Origin: Promethearchaeota archaeon
GTDB taxonomy: Archaea; Asgardarchaeota; Lokiarchaeia; Sigyniarchaeales; SOKP01
Direction of reading: 5' to 3'
NCBI GenBank assembly: GCA_019057865.1
Contig: JAHLWP010000016.1
Coordinates: forward strand, 1-64,000
Length of the DNA stretch: 64,000 nt
Positions within the stretch are counted from its first letter, which is position 1. Each line of letters begins with the position of its first letter. Both the position numbers and the translations under genes were made by a program. Shown here piece after piece: positions 11,230 to 18,752 of the stretch. The notes beneath the pieces were generated by a model. The model searched no databases, had not been told where the DNA came from, and was given only the letters and a program-made list of their open reading frames with translations.

Positions 11230-12141
11230 TTAAATTAATTTAATTTTTAAATGTTTTATTAGATAATTTTCAATTTGTTTATATGTATATCTTAACGATG
11301 TTTCTGAAATCCCAGAAACTTTAGCTATTTCCTTTTGGGTAAAATAAATATTACTCCTTTTACAGACTAAATAAATAACTGCAACACACACCACTTTAGG
11401 ATCCCTACCTATTGCAAATTGTTTTAAAGATTGTAAAATATCAAAAACTTTTTTTTCAATATCAGGACCTAATTTTAATCCATTAATAAATCTCGAGACA
11501 AATATATTAGGACCTAAAGGAATTAATTTTAATTTTAATTCTTTAATTAAAACTTTAAAACAATTCCTAGCTATTTTTTCTTTTATACTGGCCTTATTAA
11601 CTATTTCTTGAAATAGGATAGGAATTTTAAATGTTCTACATGCAAAAAATAGAGAGGCACAGACCATTCCTATAATGGATCTTCCTTTAATTAAACCTTT
11701 TTTTAAAGCTTTTCTATAAATAAAAATTGCATGACTTTTTATGTTGTATGATAACTTTAACTTACTACTAATTAACTTTAAATATCTTATCGCAATTAGA
11801 AGATTTCTCACTTCAGAGTCATTATTATAATAATCTAAGTTTGCTATTCGATTAAAATCCTTGTTCTTAATTTCATACTTTTTTATTATAGTATTTAAAT
11901 AGGGTTTTGGAGTAAAAAGAGTATTAACAAAACCAGAACTAAGCCTATCTCTTATTTCTTCATAAGAAAACATATTCTTATCAAAATTAGAAATGTCTAA
12001 GGCTTTTTCACTTACTACTAACCCACATTGTTCACAAATAGTATCACCTCTATATGAATCAGAAATAATACCATTCTTACATTCAGGACATTCAAAAATA
12101 TTTTGATTATTCTCAAGAAAAGTTTTTCTAGTTTGAGTTAT
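11230..12141 (-). CDS. tfb: Transcription factor B (TFIIB) paralogue, extended upstream to include the Zn ribbon; probable ATA start
   Basis: Cyclin repeats (GLIKGRSI, GRDP, TQKEIAKVSGISETSLR); the frame stays open upstream of 11973 and encodes CPECKNG...TICEQCGLVV; GAGGG precedes ATA at 12141. Confidence 0.85.
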   Translation of the reverse strand: MTQTRKTFLENNQNIFECPECKNGIISDSYRGDTICEQCGLVVSEKALDISNFDKNMFSYEEIRDRLSSGFVNTLFTPKPYLNTIIKKYEIKNKDFNRIANLDYYNNDSEVRNLLIAIRYLKLISSKLKLSYNIKSHAIFIYRKALKKGLIKGRSIIGMVCASLFFACRTFKIPILFQEIVNKASIKEKIARNCFKVLIKELKLKLIPLGPNIFVSRFINGLKLGPDIEKKVFDILQSLKQFAIGRDPKVVCVAVIYLVCKRSNIYFTQKEIAKVSGISETSLRYTYKQIENYLIKHLKIKLI

Positions 12142-12537: not shown

Positions 12538-13797
12538 TTAAACTCTTGAAATATCAATATTCTTTGGATTATTATAATCGATTTGAATTTGTTTTACTTT
12601 ATTGTTATAATTATCAAATATCAAAAGAACCAAATGAATTTTATAATCTAATGATTGTAATAATGCCCTCTCTAATTCTGGTCTTAGCTCTTCTTTTGTT
12701 AACCAATATGGTTTGCGATTAATTTTTATATTTTTAAGAGAATAAATATAAAGGTCTTTCCCATCCTTAGTATATGCTAATATATCAGCTTCTCCTTTTC
12801 CGGCTTCTTTTATTACTTTTTCAAATAATCCTGATTCTTTTAAACGCTTTTCGACAAAATCTTCAAAAAGTTTCCCCTTATAATAATTTATGGATCCAGA
12901 TACTTTTTTCAGGACCATACTAATTGAGTTAAACTTAATACCAAAATTCTCAGCAAGTTCATCTAAATATTTCCCTTTTTTTCTTTCTTGATAAATAGTT
13001 ATATCCCTGTTAATATCGTGCCATTTTTCATTTTTTCTTATTAAATCAAATATTTGTTCATTAGTATATCGAAAATCTCGAAAATCTAAATCTTCAAGAA
13101 ATTTTGGATTTTTTCTCTTTTCTTCATAAATTATATCATATTCATAATTCTTGATGTGATCGAAAATCTCCATTAAATCTCCTGTAACTAAATATCCTTT
13201 ATTAACTGTTTTTTCACACAATTTAAGATAAACTTTAGTAAAAAGAACACAACGTTCCCAACCTCCTGGTTTATAAGAATCTAATTTTTTTAAATCTGGT
13301 TGTTCTTTAAGTTTATTAATTCGATAATTAAAAATTTCAATAAGACCTTTATTTTTTTCAAGTGAATTACAATTGAATATTAAATCAGGTTCATTATAAA
13401 TAGAATCTATCAAACTAAAATGATAATGTTCAAATTCTATCTCTGAGACTCCAGGAGGAGGTCCATCCCACCAACGATCATGTAATTCATGCATTTCTTT
13501 TTTGTCTTTTTTGTATTTGTCACTATTTCGATATTCCTCATCACTTCTATTCTTGAATATTTTTTTTTCACATTCATCATATTTTTGCAAAATTGGTTCT
13601 GCATATTCATGAATTCTATTTAATAGCTCAATATCTTTATCTGATTCTCTAAGATTTTCGATTCTTGTCTCTAAACTTGACTCATTAGCTTGAATTAGTG
13701 TAGGATCATCAGAATAAATAATTTTATTATATGTCTTAACATATTCTTTATACCATTCTTCAGGCTTAATATTAGTTATTTGTTCAATTTTTAACAT
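12538..13797 (-). CDS. Helical N-terminal domain + HTH + C-terminal PD-(D/E)xK-like nuclease
   Basis: LDELAENFGIKFNSISMVLKK HTH; GKLFEDFVEKRL...GEADILAY...IYSLK nuclease-like motifs. Confidence 0.65.
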   Translation of the reverse strand: MLKIEQITNIKPEEWYKEYVKTYNKIIYSDDPTLIQANESSLETRIENLRESDKDIELLNRIHEYAEPILQKYDECEKKIFKNRSDEEYRNSDKYKKDKKEMHELHDRWWDGPPPGVSEIEFEHYHFSLIDSIYNEPDLIFNCNSLEKNKGLIEIFNYRINKLKEQPDLKKLDSYKPGGWERCVLFTKVYLKLCEKTVNKGYLVTGDLMEIFDHIKNYEYDIIYEEKRKNPKFLEDLDFRDFRYTNEQIFDLIRKNEKWHDINRDITIYQERKKGKYLDELAENFGIKFNSISMVLKKVSGSINYYKGKLFEDFVEKRLKESGLFEKVIKEAGKGEADILAYTKDGKDLYIYSLKNIKINRKPYWLTKEELRPELERALLQSLDYKIHLVLLIFDNYNNKVKQIQIDYNNPKNIDISRV

Positions 13798-14073
13798 TAT
13801 TATTTCACAATGTTTTATTTTTTATTTATTTTTTTGAAATTATTTTGGTTTTTTCTATAATATATAGGGATGTCTTCATTTTTATAATTACTTCAAATTT
13901 CAACATTTCAAAAAAAGGGTTTGAACATCCTTACCTAGCGGTAAATCTAATTTTTATCATTTTCTATTATAAAAATTATATTCTCGTATATTTTTATATA
14001 TATATTTATATTAATACTTATTAATTTTTTGAATAATAGCTTAATCTGTCATTTCATTGTTTATTGAAGTAAT

Positions 14074-14092
14074 ACGAAAGTGCTTATAAAAA
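14074..14092 (+). promoter_or_regulatory. Candidate BRE/TATA promoter for the repeat array
   Basis: ACGAAAG followed by TTATAAAAA about 75 bp before repeat 1. Confidence 0.45.
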
Positions 14093-14165
14093 GGGATTAG
14101 AACGCTTAGAAATACTAAACTCGTCTCTTTTGGCTCTACCTATTTAAAAATAAGAGAAATTTAGT

Positions 14166-14375
14166 AAAATACCCTTGCAGGTAGAGATTAAATGATCGGT
14201 AAATTATTTTTACCGATCTTTTTATTAAAATACCCTTGCAGGTAGAGATTAAATTTTTGATAGCTGGATAAATTTGGACACCTTCGAAAATACCCTTGCA
14301 GGTAGAGATTAAATATAATAGGTGGGTACATTTTGTACCCTCCTCTTAAAATACCCTTGCAGGTAGAGATTAAAT
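14166..14375 (+). CRISPR. CRISPR-like mini-array: 4 identical 28-bp repeats with 33/32/33-bp unique spacers; no cas genes in window
   Basis: AAAATACCCTTGCAGGTAGAGATTAAAT at 14166, 14227, 14287 and 14348. Confidence 0.7.
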
Positions 14376-14380
14376 ATTTT

Positions 14381-14430
14381 GAAGGCGTTATTTCAGATCA
14401 CGCCTTCCCTACGATGCCTTCTTTTTTTTT
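14381..14430 (+). terminator. Hairpin and T-run closing the array
   Basis: GAAGGCGT-N11-ACGCCTTC, then a T9 run ending at 14430. Confidence 0.45.
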
Positions 14431-15001
14431 ATTAAGAGAATATAATATGATTTATCTATCTTGGAAAATAAAATTAATAAATTCTCCTGATAATATTTTT
14501 TTGCAATAAAATTTTAAAAACCGTATTTGAATTTTGAGATTAGAACCTTTCTATACTTCTTTAAGATTATTATTAAGTTTAAAATCTGTATAAATACCAA
14601 TTAAACCCGTATTTATATCCTAGTATTAGAAGCTTTCTATACCTAAAAAAATAAATATTTATAGATAAATTTGGTATAAAAAATATATTGTTATTAATCT
14701 TGAAAATTTTTACTGTCCATTACTCCAGGATAAAAATTAAATCAAAAGATTCAAATTACATTTTCATACGATTTTAAGTCAATTAATCCCCGTTTTTAGA
14801 ACGATTTTTCAAAAAGTAATGAAATTATGTTAATTTTTATTTCTCAAAAAAATCGATAATGTTTATTAAAAAAATAAATAAATACTCCTGAAGAATTTTT
14901 TATGGCCATACAAAAATTAAGAAAAATAAAATGTTGATATAATTTTTTTATTTGTTTTAGGTCCAGAAAAAATTTTATAAAAATTTTTGTTAATCTGCTG
15001 A

Positions 15002-15860
15002 TGATCATTTTCAATAATTCCTGATCAAATTCGATAATGAATGATCAAAAAGGATAAAAACTTATAAAATATAAGAAATGTTATATAATTATCTTTTTTC
15101 CATTGCAAAAGTTGGATTTTTCTTTCTTTAAATAGCTTTTTGCGTTGTATTCATATTTCAATTCCCTACATTATTTATCAAAACGAATCCATAGATTTCA
15201 TGGATTATACATAAATAAAATAAGATGATTAATTTCAATAGCTATAATTTTTTTCATTTATATATCAATTTTCTTAAATAAATGTTAATCATTATATGTG
15301 TGTATTTTTTCGTCTTTTTTTCATTACATTATTACAATGGGTTTAGAAGCTTTATAACCCCCAAGATTTAAGGAATTTTTGTAATGATTGAATTATTACA
15401 AGTTATTACAAATTTTCTGAAAATTTTATATATAAGAGGATTACCCAAATTAAAGAGATCTTAAAGGATGTTGAAAATAGCTCTATGACAAGTCTTATTG
15501 AGATTGATATAATTTAATAAATAATGAATTTATATAATGATAAGTATAATTATCTTAAAGAATATATTGTTTTTTGGAAAATAGATATATATATAATTTA
15601 ATACTTAGATAACCCAAAGTTTATTATAATTGGATTAGGGGTTTTATACACTTCAAATTCTTGATTTTTTAAGTTGTAATATTACAATTCATTTTGTAAT
15701 GATTGTATATTATTACAAATTTTTTGAAAAAGCTTTGAATAGAACATGAGAAGAAAAAGAAAAATAATTTGTAATAATGTAATGATGATATTTATATTTT
15801 CTTACAAATTATTAGATTAATATATTAGTGAATATTGAATGATCAAATTCGATCATTTTC
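15002..15860. other. Putative replication origin of the element (iteron cluster)
   Basis: Many TTGTAAT/ATTACAA motifs; 17-bp inverted repeat 15321-15337/15769-15785; palindrome 15674-15687; lies downstream of the helicase operon. Confidence 0.6.
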
Positions 15861-15959
15861 AAAGAAAAATTGAAAATAAAAAAAAATATATGGAAAAACA
15901 AGCTCTAAACAATAAAAAATAGAAAAGAATTATAAAAAAGAATAAAATTAAGTTTTTGT

Positions 15960-16355: not shown

Positions 16356-18752
16356 TTAAGGCTCACCATATTCAATATCCCCCCCATCCCCATCCAATTT
16401 TAAATTTAATAAATTTTCTTTTTTAAAATAAATTAAGTTATCATTCGTTTCATCCGGGATAATTACCTCATTATCCCAGAGATAATCAAAAGCCTTTTCA
16501 ATCAAATTCTCATTATATTTTCTTCCTAAGATTTGCTTTAATGCATTCTCTTCTAATCCCTTGAAGTCATTCGATTCAAAAGCCTTTTCAATTCTTTCTA
16601 TAATTCCCTTTTCTCTTTTAATTTTTTCATCATAATCCATTTTCTTTTTAATCTTATCGAGATAAACCATCTTCTCTTTAATTTCATTGAGATAAAATAT
16701 AATACCCCATATTGGTTTATCAAAAGAAGTTTCGCTCTCTTGGTCAATTACTCTTTCTGATCCTGTTTCAATTCTTCTCATTAACAATCGTGATTCCATA
16801 TTTGCTATAGTAGTTAAATGCTTTAAAGGTTCATATCTTCTCACTCCTGCCCATTTATCATACTCATTAATAAAATCCCTTCCTAACACAATTTCTTTGT
16901 CATTTTTGTTGTTAAAATATCTCTTAAAAGCACTTTTTGGATCTTCATAGAAATCGACAATTCTCCCAAAATCTTGCAATGAATAGATTTGTTCAATTTC
17001 TTCCAAATCAATTATAAATTGTAAAAACATATTATTTTCTTCAAAATCTATTACTTTACTCAATATATCTACATTTAGTTTGTGCTTATTAAATAAATAT
17101 CGCCAAAAATATAAACCCACTAAAATTAAGCTATAAATTGTTATCCTTCTCGGGTCAATATACTCATTGCCGAATTTTTTTAAGAAGTAATCAATTAGCC
17201 TTTCTTTTATATTATCTATGAAATTTGTAAATTTTTCATAAGACGCATTTTCAATTAAATTGTCTGTTTTTTTAATGAATTCAAGTGCATTCTTTAATAG
17301 ATAATATCCGAATATCTTACCCTGTTTAATTTCTTTTATATTTTCATCAAATTTTTTAAAGCCTTTATCTTTAAGTATATCGACACGTTTAAACGCCCGA
17401 AATGTTAATGCTCTTATTCTAAAAGCCATATTATCCTCTCCTTGTATGAAATCATCTTCATTGGCAGTTCCCATAAATGAAGCATATACTTCTTCACGCA
17501 AAATTTCTTGTTTATCTTTGCCACCCATTCGTATTCTTCCCTTTTTTCGTGTACTTATTGATTTTATAAAACTCATTTGAATCTCTTTTAATTCATCCAT
17601 ATCATCAATAGGTAGGGGAGTAGTATGACTTGTTGGTATCTTGCTTAATCTGGCTTGACTATTTACATCATCTGCATTTTGTAATTCAGTTCCATAGATT
17701 ATATTTCCCATTAATTCAAAAAAGGTTGTTTTCCCTGTTCCAGGAGGGGCAATCCAAAAAAGGTTTGGAAATATATCCAAATAATCTTTAAGTGCATAGA
17801 AAAAAGGTGAAATTGCTATATATCCACTTGTTATTAATCTTACTGATAATGGCAGACTGTTATTATGGATAATTTCATAAAAGGGGGTTGTTAAATCTCC
17901 ATTTGTATCTATTCCTTTCTTCTCACAAAAACTAATTATTTCTTTTTGAAAGTCATTTTCCCCATATAATTTAATATTTTTGATTCCTGGATATATTATT
18001 TTTAATTCCTTATTTTGTGTAAGAAACACTCCTATTGTAGGAAACATCGAAATCGGTTCTAAATTATATTTTTTTTCATAACCTCTCAAAATAATGCTTA
18101 TGAAATTTTTATATTCTTTCCCTGTTACATAGCTATAATTCCTTTTATTATCAATAAAATCTAACAAATCACTTTTAGATAAACATCTCTCTTCTGCCCC
18201 TATTTTTACTTCATAAAACCTTTCCTCATTTTGAGTCAAATAAAGACATGTTAAGTCAAATGGAACATCCAAAATAGGTGTGTCAAAATTCATCTCATAG
18301 AATTCATCGGTATTCTTAATTTTATATTTCTTTATTTGTCGGTATATTATCCCCCCTTTTGTGCTTAATAATTTATAAATTCCCCCTCTTGGTTTTTCTG
18401 CAACAATAATAGATAATAATGGTATTTCTTCTCCTTTCTCCTCTTCTTCTTCTTTCTCATATTTAACCACAGTTACCCTATATTGATCCCAGAGTTCATC
18501 AAAAGCTCTTTTTGGTAAAATTCCTTTTTCTGCTAAGAGATTTCTAGTATTGTTCTTACACATAATATCATTAATTCGAATTTGATGAATTAAACTAATT
18601 AAATCTGTAGTTTGAATATCATTATCAATTCTGTTGAACCACTCATATAATTCATTCCATTTGCTTGGATATGGTGTTAACTCCTCAGTTTCTTCATATA
18701 TTCGTTGTAAATATGTAGAATGTTCATACCAATTCTTTTTATTATCTGACAT
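16356..18752 (-). CDS. Mobile-element replication helicase (SF3/DUF927-Cch-like AAA+ ATPase)
   Basis: Walker A APPGTGKTT, Walker B LPIDDMDE, sensor GTANE; no obvious primase motifs. Confidence 0.75.
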   Translation of the reverse strand: MSDNKKNWYEHSTYLQRIYEETEELTPYPSKWNELYEWFNRIDNDIQTTDLISLIHQIRINDIMCKNNTRNLLAEKGILPKRAFDELWDQYRVTVVKYEKEEEEEKGEEIPLLSIIVAEKPRGGIYKLLSTKGGIIYRQIKKYKIKNTDEFYEMNFDTPILDVPFDLTCLYLTQNEERFYEVKIGAEERCLSKSDLLDFIDNKRNYSYVTGKEYKNFISIILRGYEKKYNLEPISMFPTIGVFLTQNKELKIIYPGIKNIKLYGENDFQKEIISFCEKKGIDTNGDLTTPFYEIIHNNSLPLSVRLITSGYIAISPFFYALKDYLDIFPNLFWIAPPGTGKTTFFELMGNIIYGTELQNADDVNSQARLSKIPTSHTTPLPIDDMDELKEIQMSFIKSISTRKKGRIRMGGKDKQEILREEVYASFMGTANEDDFIQGEDNMAFRIRALTFRAFKRVDILKDKGFKKFDENIKEIKQGKIFGYYLLKNALEFIKKTDNLIENASYEKFTNFIDNIKERLIDYFLKKFGNEYIDPRRITIYSLILVGLYFWRYLFNKHKLNVDILSKVIDFEENNMFLQFIIDLEEIEQIYSLQDFGRIVDFYEDPKSAFKRYFNNKNDKEIVLGRDFINEYDKWAGVRRYEPLKHLTTIANMESRLLMRRIETGSERVIDQESETSFDKPIWGIIFYLNEIKEKMVYLDKIKKKMDYDEKIKREKGIIERIEKAFESNDFKGLEENALKQILGRKYNENLIEKAFDYLWDNEVIIPDETNDNLIYFKKENLLNLKLDGDGGDIEYGEP

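Follow-up and report, generated by a model that had tools for sequence, protein, structure and literature searches.

The window examined here, a 64,000-nucleotide (nt) stretch of contig JAHLWP010000016.1 from a Promethearchaeota archaeon, carries on an integrated mobile element a short CRISPR array, which is very probably an element-borne mini-array derived from a type I-E system. The array belongs to a previously unnoticed family on related Asgard elements, whose members have a common leader, the type I-E unit format, and a repeat lineage that can be followed stepwise to a chromosomal type I-E repeat; more than half of the family spacers form hairpins, and two spacers match sibling elements. 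The full mechanistic account, in which a cas-less descendant of a type I-E array travels as cargo of an integrated Loki-type Asgard element and is used against its siblings, is our preferred interpretation, held tentatively and at slightly less than an even chance.

The 28-nt repeat AAAATACCCTTGCAGGTAGAGATTAAAT occurs in four exact forward-strand copies starting at 14166, 14227, 14287, and 14348, and these coordinates confirm the 61/60/61 spacing reported in an earlier sequence-only reading of the window; 100 shuffles gave no match of this kind. No further copy was present elsewhere in the 4.26-Mb genome. The repeats span 14166-14375, the start at 14074 given in that reading including the leader. 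With four 28-nt repeats that are 100% identical and with unique spacers of near-constant length (33, 32, and 33 nt; sequences mutually unrelated), the locus has the form of a CRISPR array, the repeats of which generally measure 23-47 nt. No cas gene was found in the element, which supports the earlier idea of a mini-array that lacks cas genes and is carried by a mobile element. The features of the array are as follows.

14104..14165, forward strand: leader, directly 5' of repeat 1, aligned with 12 related leaders
14166..14193, forward strand: repeat 1, 28 nt
14194..14226, forward strand: spacer 1, 33 nt, with a perfect 10-bp stem, a 5-nt loop, and a T-rich tail
14227..14254, forward strand: repeat 2
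14255..14286, forward strand: spacer 2, 32 nt, unstructured
14287..14314, forward strand: repeat 3
14315..14347, forward strand: spacer 3, 33 nt, with a 7-bp perfect stem, a 3-bp extension, and the core TACA-TTT-TGTA
14348..14375, forward strand: repeat 4, the same as the other three and not degenerate
14376..14430, forward strand: trailer, with an 8-bp-stem hairpin (14381-14407) and a T9 run (14422-14430)

The self-complementarity noticed earlier in spacers 1 and 3 and in the segment after repeat 4 corresponds to strong predicted folds, with -13.6 kcal/mol (z -6.8, about -7) for spacer 1, -14.0 kcal/mol (z -4.0) for spacer 3, and -12.1 kcal/mol (z -3.7) for the trailer at 14376-14430, which is followed by T9. 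Spacer 2 forms no hairpin (-0.3 kcal/mol, z +1.3), and the repeat itself folds into a weak 4-bp stem (-2.7 kcal/mol, z -1.2). By analogy with oligo-T termination in archaea, the trailer hairpin and the T9 run are the likely transcript end. Rfam and tRNA scans of the window returned nothing, and readings as C/D-box, H/ACA, or bulge-helix-bulge RNA were dropped after inspection by eye, the respective motifs being absent.

Sibling elements were located through the neighboring gene encoding a 419-amino-acid (aa) protein, which yielded a thin sample of about 25 loci (designated L), with the gene order helicase gene, small open reading frames (ORFs), gap, 419-aa gene, and TFIIB gene. Arrays of 2-4 repeats with a 60-61-nt unit occupy the gap in L009, L096, L118, L006, L101, L099, L098, and L116, among which L098 holds two convergent leader-array modules and L116 three arrays. 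A 62-nt leader lies directly before each array (13 loci aligned, mean column identity 73%). In the window it contains a AAATACTAAA box and a TCTAC box as well as, at about 14141-14150, a TATA-like box; the TATA-like element noticed earlier upstream of the repeats is real and part of this conserved leader. Such a box lies about 17-24 nt before repeat 1, and its presence and spacing suggest that the leader is a promoter, with transcription predicted to start about 5-7 nt inside repeat 1, at the pyrimidine-purine step at repeat positions 5-6. Searched with a sequence model of the leader, this genome gave a single match (E 3e-16), and among 150 other genomes of the order 5 had matches; the two of these five that were inspected, the same-genus genomes G096 and G053, both carry the leader with a mini-array.

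The leader is conserved across elements whose marker proteins (the 419-aa family) are only 45-60% identical, and leader and array stay together in either orientation relative to the 419-aa gene. The distribution of arrays is patchy: they are absent from the close relatives L005 and L117, and L005, with a marker protein 86% identical, has kept the leader-proximal flank without an array. The leader-distal repeat is decayed in L009, L096, L101, and L006 and intact in the window, and solitary repeat-like units are present in siblings. The same gap in siblings also holds HEPN, TIR, and AAA_15/DUF3226 genes, and the array site is therefore a cargo hot spot. A complementarity between leader and repeat (an anti-repeat, CTCTACCT vs AGGTAGAG) was considered and not used, the TCTAC box being present in all leaders whatever the repeat and the extended pairing being found in 3 of 6 arrays.

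The format and lineage of the family are those of type I-E, which the sequence-only reading had missed. Each family unit of 61 nt consists of a 28-nt repeat and a 33-nt insert, with a period of 60-61 in all family arrays; in Escherichia coli, the type I-E system integrates 33-bp spacers starting with a G derived from the protospacer adjacent motif (PAM), which is AAG (PMC9699676). The repeats form a chain of intermediates, with identities over 28 positions of 24 between the window and the terminal repeat of L096, 24 between the latter and L116b, 23 between L116b and L130, 22 between L130 and L131, and 20 between L131 and the chromosomal type I-E repeat, whereas direct comparison of the two ends of the chain gives 14/28. 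The first base of the insert is G in 11 of 22 cases, against 18% G overall (p 6e-4). Furthermore, spacer 2 of L098 is a 33/33-nt copy, with exact boundaries, of the 3' end of the 419-aa-family gene of its own element, and its protospacer is preceded by AA and begins with G, that is, it shows an AAG PAM and a PAM-derived G. These signatures of integration by type I-E Cas1-Cas2 (unit, repeat chain, gene-copy spacer, and first-base G) indicate that the family is CRISPR-derived and neither an iteron array nor an unrelated RNA.

Type I-E systems are present in the same genus. G096 encodes a complete Cas3-Cse1-Cse2-Cas7e-Cas5e-Cas6e-Cas1-Cas2 operon followed by a 29/32 array; of 154 genomes of the order, 10 have Cas6e, and for the genus the count is 3 of 53, the same-genus type I-E carriers being G096, G069, and G098. 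Among Loki-type archaea, both type I-E systems and arrays parasitic on them are in circulation. A separate array of type I-E format found by a loose pattern search in the same-genus genome G055, L158 (G055:C30:43420-44060), has 11 repeats of 29 nt with 32-nt spacers that are not hairpins. Over about 10 kb to its left and to its right there is no cas gene, and genes for an OLD-family nuclease and a Piwi-domain protein are close by.

The same signatures bear on two alternatives that dispense with CRISPR. A new guide or non-coding RNA array, whose 61-nt units would be structured RNAs processed by some enzyme, would fit the strong hairpins in most units, the lack of an Rfam match, and the lack of Cas proteins in sibling neighborhoods; we regard it as extremely unlikely given the stepwise repeat lineage to type I-E, the variable hairpin offset within the unit, the unstructured spacer 2 and several unstructured sibling spacers, and the one sibling spacer that is an exact gene fragment. 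A function at the DNA level, with repeats and palindromes serving as double-stranded or cruciform protein sites (iterons, a partition site, or a sponge for rival regulators), maybe read by the helix-turn-helix (HTH)-Hjc protein encoded by the 419-aa gene, also appears improbable. It would account for the operator-like geometry of the palindromes (7-10-bp arms, 3-7-bp center), for the iteron-like tandem 8-nt repeats that make up some sibling inserts, and for the position of the array between a replication gene and the HTH-nuclease gene, and plasmid iteron or incompatibility arrays likewise consist of identical direct repeats in non-coding DNA by a replication gene. However, the array differs from these in its 61-bp period, unique inserts of fixed length, and own leader; a gene segment copied exactly over 33 nt beside an AAG PAM, the decay of terminal repeats, and a repeat lineage leading to type I-E are signatures of CRISPR and not of iterons; several siblings with the same replication genes have no array; the orientation to the neighboring gene flips among siblings while leader and array remain coupled; and a separate, better origin candidate lies at 15300-15800.

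The enrichment of palindromes in homologous arrays, which the sequence-only reading had proposed as a check, was found and is strong: 12 of 21 family spacers fold at -8 kcal/mol or lower. For random 33-mers the share is 0.9% when they are drawn from these elements, 2.4% within the non-coding gaps, and 0.7% in the host genome, and none of 75 host type III spacers folds so well. By z-score, 57% of family spacers fall below -2, compared with 3% of 80 type I-E spacers in related genomes (Fisher 1.8e-8), and the bias is therefore specific to the element-borne arrays and not a property of type I-E adaptation in these archaea. The bias is real, is not shown by ordinary CRISPR arrays, and is unexplained by any known mechanism. 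Among repeat types, 12 of 16 spacers are hairpins in arrays of the CCCTT type, which includes the window, as opposed to 0 of 6 in the CCCAT type, in which G is the first base of 5 of the 6 (Fisher 0.003; independence of the arrays as samples is not given); the CCCTT-type repeats are the subclass that has drifted furthest from type I-E. Sense strands fold better than antisense strands in 11 of 15 hairpin spacers, which is a trend only (p 0.09), and the offset of the hairpin within the spacer varies, so captured fragments fit better than a designed RNA unit.

Two further explanations turn on this bias. The array could be a relic with no present function, its palindromes reflecting the origin of prespacers on these elements (for instance self-annealing single strands or cruciform breakage) and not selection; we consider this rather unlikely. 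The absence of type I-E genes from the host assembly, the patchy occurrence among close siblings (L005 without an array), and the decayed terminal repeats and solitary repeat-like units in siblings are in line with such a relic, and the Hjc-type domain modeled for the adjacent core gene product could cut extruded palindromes. By contrast, four identical repeats in the window and a leader conserved at 45-60% marker identity point to purifying selection or recent activity, and the type I-E arrays of related genomes lack the hairpin bias, which is thus no general property of type I-E adaptation in these archaea.

Alternatively, the array could produce an RNA decoy resembling the RNA anti-CRISPRs (Racrs), in which CRISPR RNA (crRNA)-like molecules with self-paired, inert guides would tie up host Cas6 or the host's effector complexes, namely type I-E Cascade in other hosts and possibly the type III system in this one, and dilute host crRNAs. 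Repeat 1 stands directly behind a promoter-like leader, as in solitary repeat units (PMC10651486); the hairpin sequences are mostly unrelated to each other and vary in position within the spacer; the sense-strand trend points in the same direction, as does the concentration of hairpins in the repeat subclass most drifted from type I-E; and in its final bases the window repeat is similar to the 3' terminus of the type III repeat of the host. Nevertheless, a decoy is a live but unlikely rival explanation, since known Racrs mimic the host repeat closely, whereas here the resemblance covers about 10 bases of a 37-nt repeat and 14/28 positions of the type I-E repeat; moreover, the Cas6e-type repeat stem is eroded, and some spacers match siblings, which would be needless for a pure decoy.

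Comparison with sibling loci gave some indication of where spacers come from. Spacer 3 of L118 agrees at 30 of 33 nt with a stem-loop that L099 and L096 have between arrays, the orientation being opposite with respect to the local leader; this match and that of L098 spacer 2 score 52 and 48 bits, and they are the only two above shuffled sets, the best of 20 of which reached 40. Across the sampled sibling loci, 2 of 21 family spacers clearly match siblings, none of the window's three being among them. Four array spacers, among them window spacer 3, contain a core of the GACA-WWW-TGTC type, which is also seen in free stem-loops of L101 and L112; spacer 2 of L118 has 16 nt in common with one of these stem-loops. 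These similarities make it the best-supported reason for the palindromes that hairpin spacers may copy a fast-evolving stem-loop family adjoining the array site in siblings, in keeping with virus-borne mini-arrays, whose spacers match regions close to arrays (Medvedeva et al., 2019, PMC6858448); copying of stem-loops alone leaves the 57% share unaccounted for. The earlier suggestion that the spacers are aimed at structured cis-elements of rivals accordingly receives some support from the L118 spacer 3 match and the shared stem-loop core, whereas the window's own spacers gave no target.

The resident CRISPR arrays of the host are of a different kind. They lie on contigs C22 and C70, have a 37-nt repeat with a 74-75-nt period, and adjoin a type III effector module (Cas10 with an HD domain, Cmr3, and RAMPs), Cas6, and Csm6/CARF genes. 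The window repeat resembles the host type III repeat only over the last approximately 10 bases (AGATT-AAAT vs AGATTGAAAT), and the leader model found no match at the host arrays. Because the repeat is unlike the host CRISPR repeats, the earlier proposal that the mini-array borrows Cas proteins of this host is doubtful. None of 77 host CRISPR spacers matched the element or its siblings. Allowing at most 3 mismatches, a search of 153 genomes of the order for the window repeat found none, and neither did a search of IMG/VR and GTDB contigs for an exact 24-mer of it; a degenerate 17-base repeat core searched in the same contigs gave only single chance matches in unrelated bacteria and was rejected. 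One host type III spacer matches G000 contig C11:20233-20270 at 36/38, and this contig, with a GC content of 25%, probably represents a further mobile element or a virus of the archaeon.

In the mechanistic account that we favor, the leader promoter would drive the array, giving a transcript that begins within repeat 1 and stops at the hairpin and T-run of the trailer. The type I-E Cas1-Cas2 integrase of same-genus type I-E hosts would have built the family arrays by duplicating the 28-bp repeat and inserting 33 bp, and the array RNAs would be loaded into Cascade of a type I-E host where one is available, leading to exclusion of sibling elements, which is the known role of virus-borne mini-arrays. 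The window array would represent a derived subclass with an eroded repeat stem and mostly palindromic inserts, the latter copying fast-evolving structured stem-loops next to sibling array sites. In the present host, the array is probably idle cargo, because the assembly lacks type I-E genes. Transcription, use by Cascade, and the reason for the palindromes are what we infer here from the observed arrays and their relatives.

Several findings weigh against this account. Neither Cas1 nor Cas6e was found in the host assembly (87 contigs, 99.7% complete by markers), and the 37-nt repeats and leaders of the host arrays are unrelated to those of the mini-array. Even in G096, which has type I-E, the repeat of the mini-array and the chromosomal repeat agree at only about half of their positions. 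Type I-E repeats have a stable GC stem-loop and an 8-nt handle that Cas6e recognizes; in the window repeat both the CCCC/GGGG stem and the ...ACCG handle have eroded, so that little of the Cas6e-type stem is left, and for a proposed 5-bp repeat stem covariation was not above shuffles and RNAalifold predicted nothing. The T5 runs in spacer 1 could end archaeal transcription early. For the window spacers, searches of their own genome, of sibling loci, and of collections of phages and plasmids yielded no protospacer, and searches of 154 genomes of the order gave only AT-rich matches at chance level. With its good PAM, the self-match of L098 would lead to self-destruction in a host with active type I-E. 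Finally, if spacers were captured at random from regions that bear hairpins, about 2% and not 57% of them would be hairpins, and an added selective or mechanistic bias is therefore needed.

The closest known systems are the virus-borne mini-CRISPR arrays of the Saccharolobus portogloboviruses SPV1 and SPV2 (Medvedeva et al., 2019, PMC6858448; reviewed in PMC11656645). In both cases a short, cas-less, intergenic array lies on an element behind a promoter-bearing leader (here predicted), siblings have different spacers at the same site, and some spacers match siblings near the array site. Unlike in the SPV mini-arrays, the repeats and leader are not those of the host, the leader belonging to the element family; the array follows the type I-E format and stands in an archaeon, with three spacers in place of one or two; over half of the family spacers are hairpins; and a sibling array contains one spacer with a perfect match to its own element. 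Type I-E arrays proper, of E. coli or the chromosome of G096, have in common with the family the 61-nt unit, the excess of G at the first base, the AAG PAM at one exact protospacer, and the repeat intermediates, but differ from the window array in its eroded stem and handle (14/28), the absence of type I-E cas genes from its genome, its mini-array size, and its hairpin spacers. The Racr or solitary repeat units (Camara-Wilpert et al., 2023, PMC10651486) likewise place a repeat behind a promoter (predicted here) on a mobile element without cas genes, and by analogy a self-paired guide would yield non-productive complexes; unlike these, the present units are not solitary, the repeat is no close mimic of that of the resident host, and some spacers match real targets.

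Element-borne mini-arrays are regarded as weapons between related viruses and have been described with repeats copied from the host and with ordinary spacers; a palindromic spacer bias is not described in the mini-array literature compared (PMC6858448, PMC11656645). What is new here is the combination, in an Asgard element family, of an own leader, a diverged type I-E-derived repeat, and mostly palindromic spacers. A broader conjecture would be that palindromic spacers are selected in a distinct class of mini-arrays, in order to hit hard-to-change structured cis-elements of rivals, such as stem-loops, operators, or origins, or to jam host effectors with inert guides, the Asgard family being one instance of a rule that holds across phyla; we consider this possible but doubtful. 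If the bias is selected, it would amount to a rule on what mobile elements target in each other, or on how host CRISPR is disarmed, and would provide a simple sequence signature for locating such arrays. The marker gene and the leader model can now be used for collecting this little-known Asgard mobile element family.

The region from position 1 to about 20.9 kb of the window looks like an integrated mobile element, with genes for an N6/N4 DNA methylase and for integrase-like, ribbon-helix-helix (RHH), and zinc-finger proteins, together with the TFIIB homolog, the 419-aa gene, and a DUF5906 gene. Archaeal host genes follow from 21051 (aspartate carbamoyltransferase, S7, NusA, L30e, and RNA polymerase A'/A''). 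The array sits within a 2.1-kb ORF-free gap at 13798-15959, and no Cas genes or domains were found in the element or among the neighbors at sibling loci. The element genes nearest to this gap that matter here are listed below.

11230-11973, reverse strand: TFIIB/TFB homolog
12538-13797, reverse strand: 419-aa core gene, divergent from the array and used as the marker for finding sibling elements
16356-18752: 798-aa DUF5906 primase/helicase-like gene

The 419-aa protein has 76 homologs, all on Asgard-type metagenome contigs and none annotated, and its gene is always followed by a TFIIB homolog; a search of IMG/VR for the marker family gave no relative. Its structural model (predicted local distance difference test, pLDDT, 89.5) comprises a helical N-terminal region, an HTH, and a C-terminal fold of the Hjc-type Holliday junction resolvases. 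The top Foldseek matches of this model were Hjc proteins (1gef_A, E 2.4e-3, probability 1.0, TM-score by target 0.68), and no PDB match passed at E 0.001. The modeled presence of a junction-cutting nuclease beside palindromes is suggestive; since several siblings keep the gene without an array, we claim no functional link between the two. The TCTAC-box leader could be a promoter class read by the element's own TFIIB/TFB homolog.

Other features of the non-coding gap were also noted. At about 15300-15800, in ORF-free sequence just downstream of the DUF5906 helicase operon, dense TTACAA/TTGTAA motifs accompany a palindrome, TTGTAATATTACAA, and a long inverted repeat; this iteron-like region, about 1 kb from the array, is probably the replication origin of the element and a better candidate for it than the array. 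A small stem-loop of the form TTACC-4 nt-GGTAA, some 110 nt upstream of the 419-aa gene at 13905-13935, is kept at the corresponding position in all sibling loci, and window spacer 1 holds its TTACC/GGTAA half-sites in swapped order. A partly palindromic motif, roughly 20 nt in length and of the GATTAGAAC/G..TTTCTATAC type, recurs across the gap at 14094, 14536, 14622, and 15341 and possibly represents operator sites.

In the sibling gaps, some inserts and trailers (L098:3138-3400 and L101:440-480) consist of four copies of an 8-nt sequence in tandem and are not hairpins. A conserved terminator-like stem-loop, AGTTGGGTGCCCAACT, followed by a T-run, occurs in the gaps of distant members (L009:5330-5350, L096:920-945, and L118 near 3750). 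At L009:5230-5400, a second repeat family of about 24 nt, in three copies with GC-rich hairpins between them, adjoins the main array.

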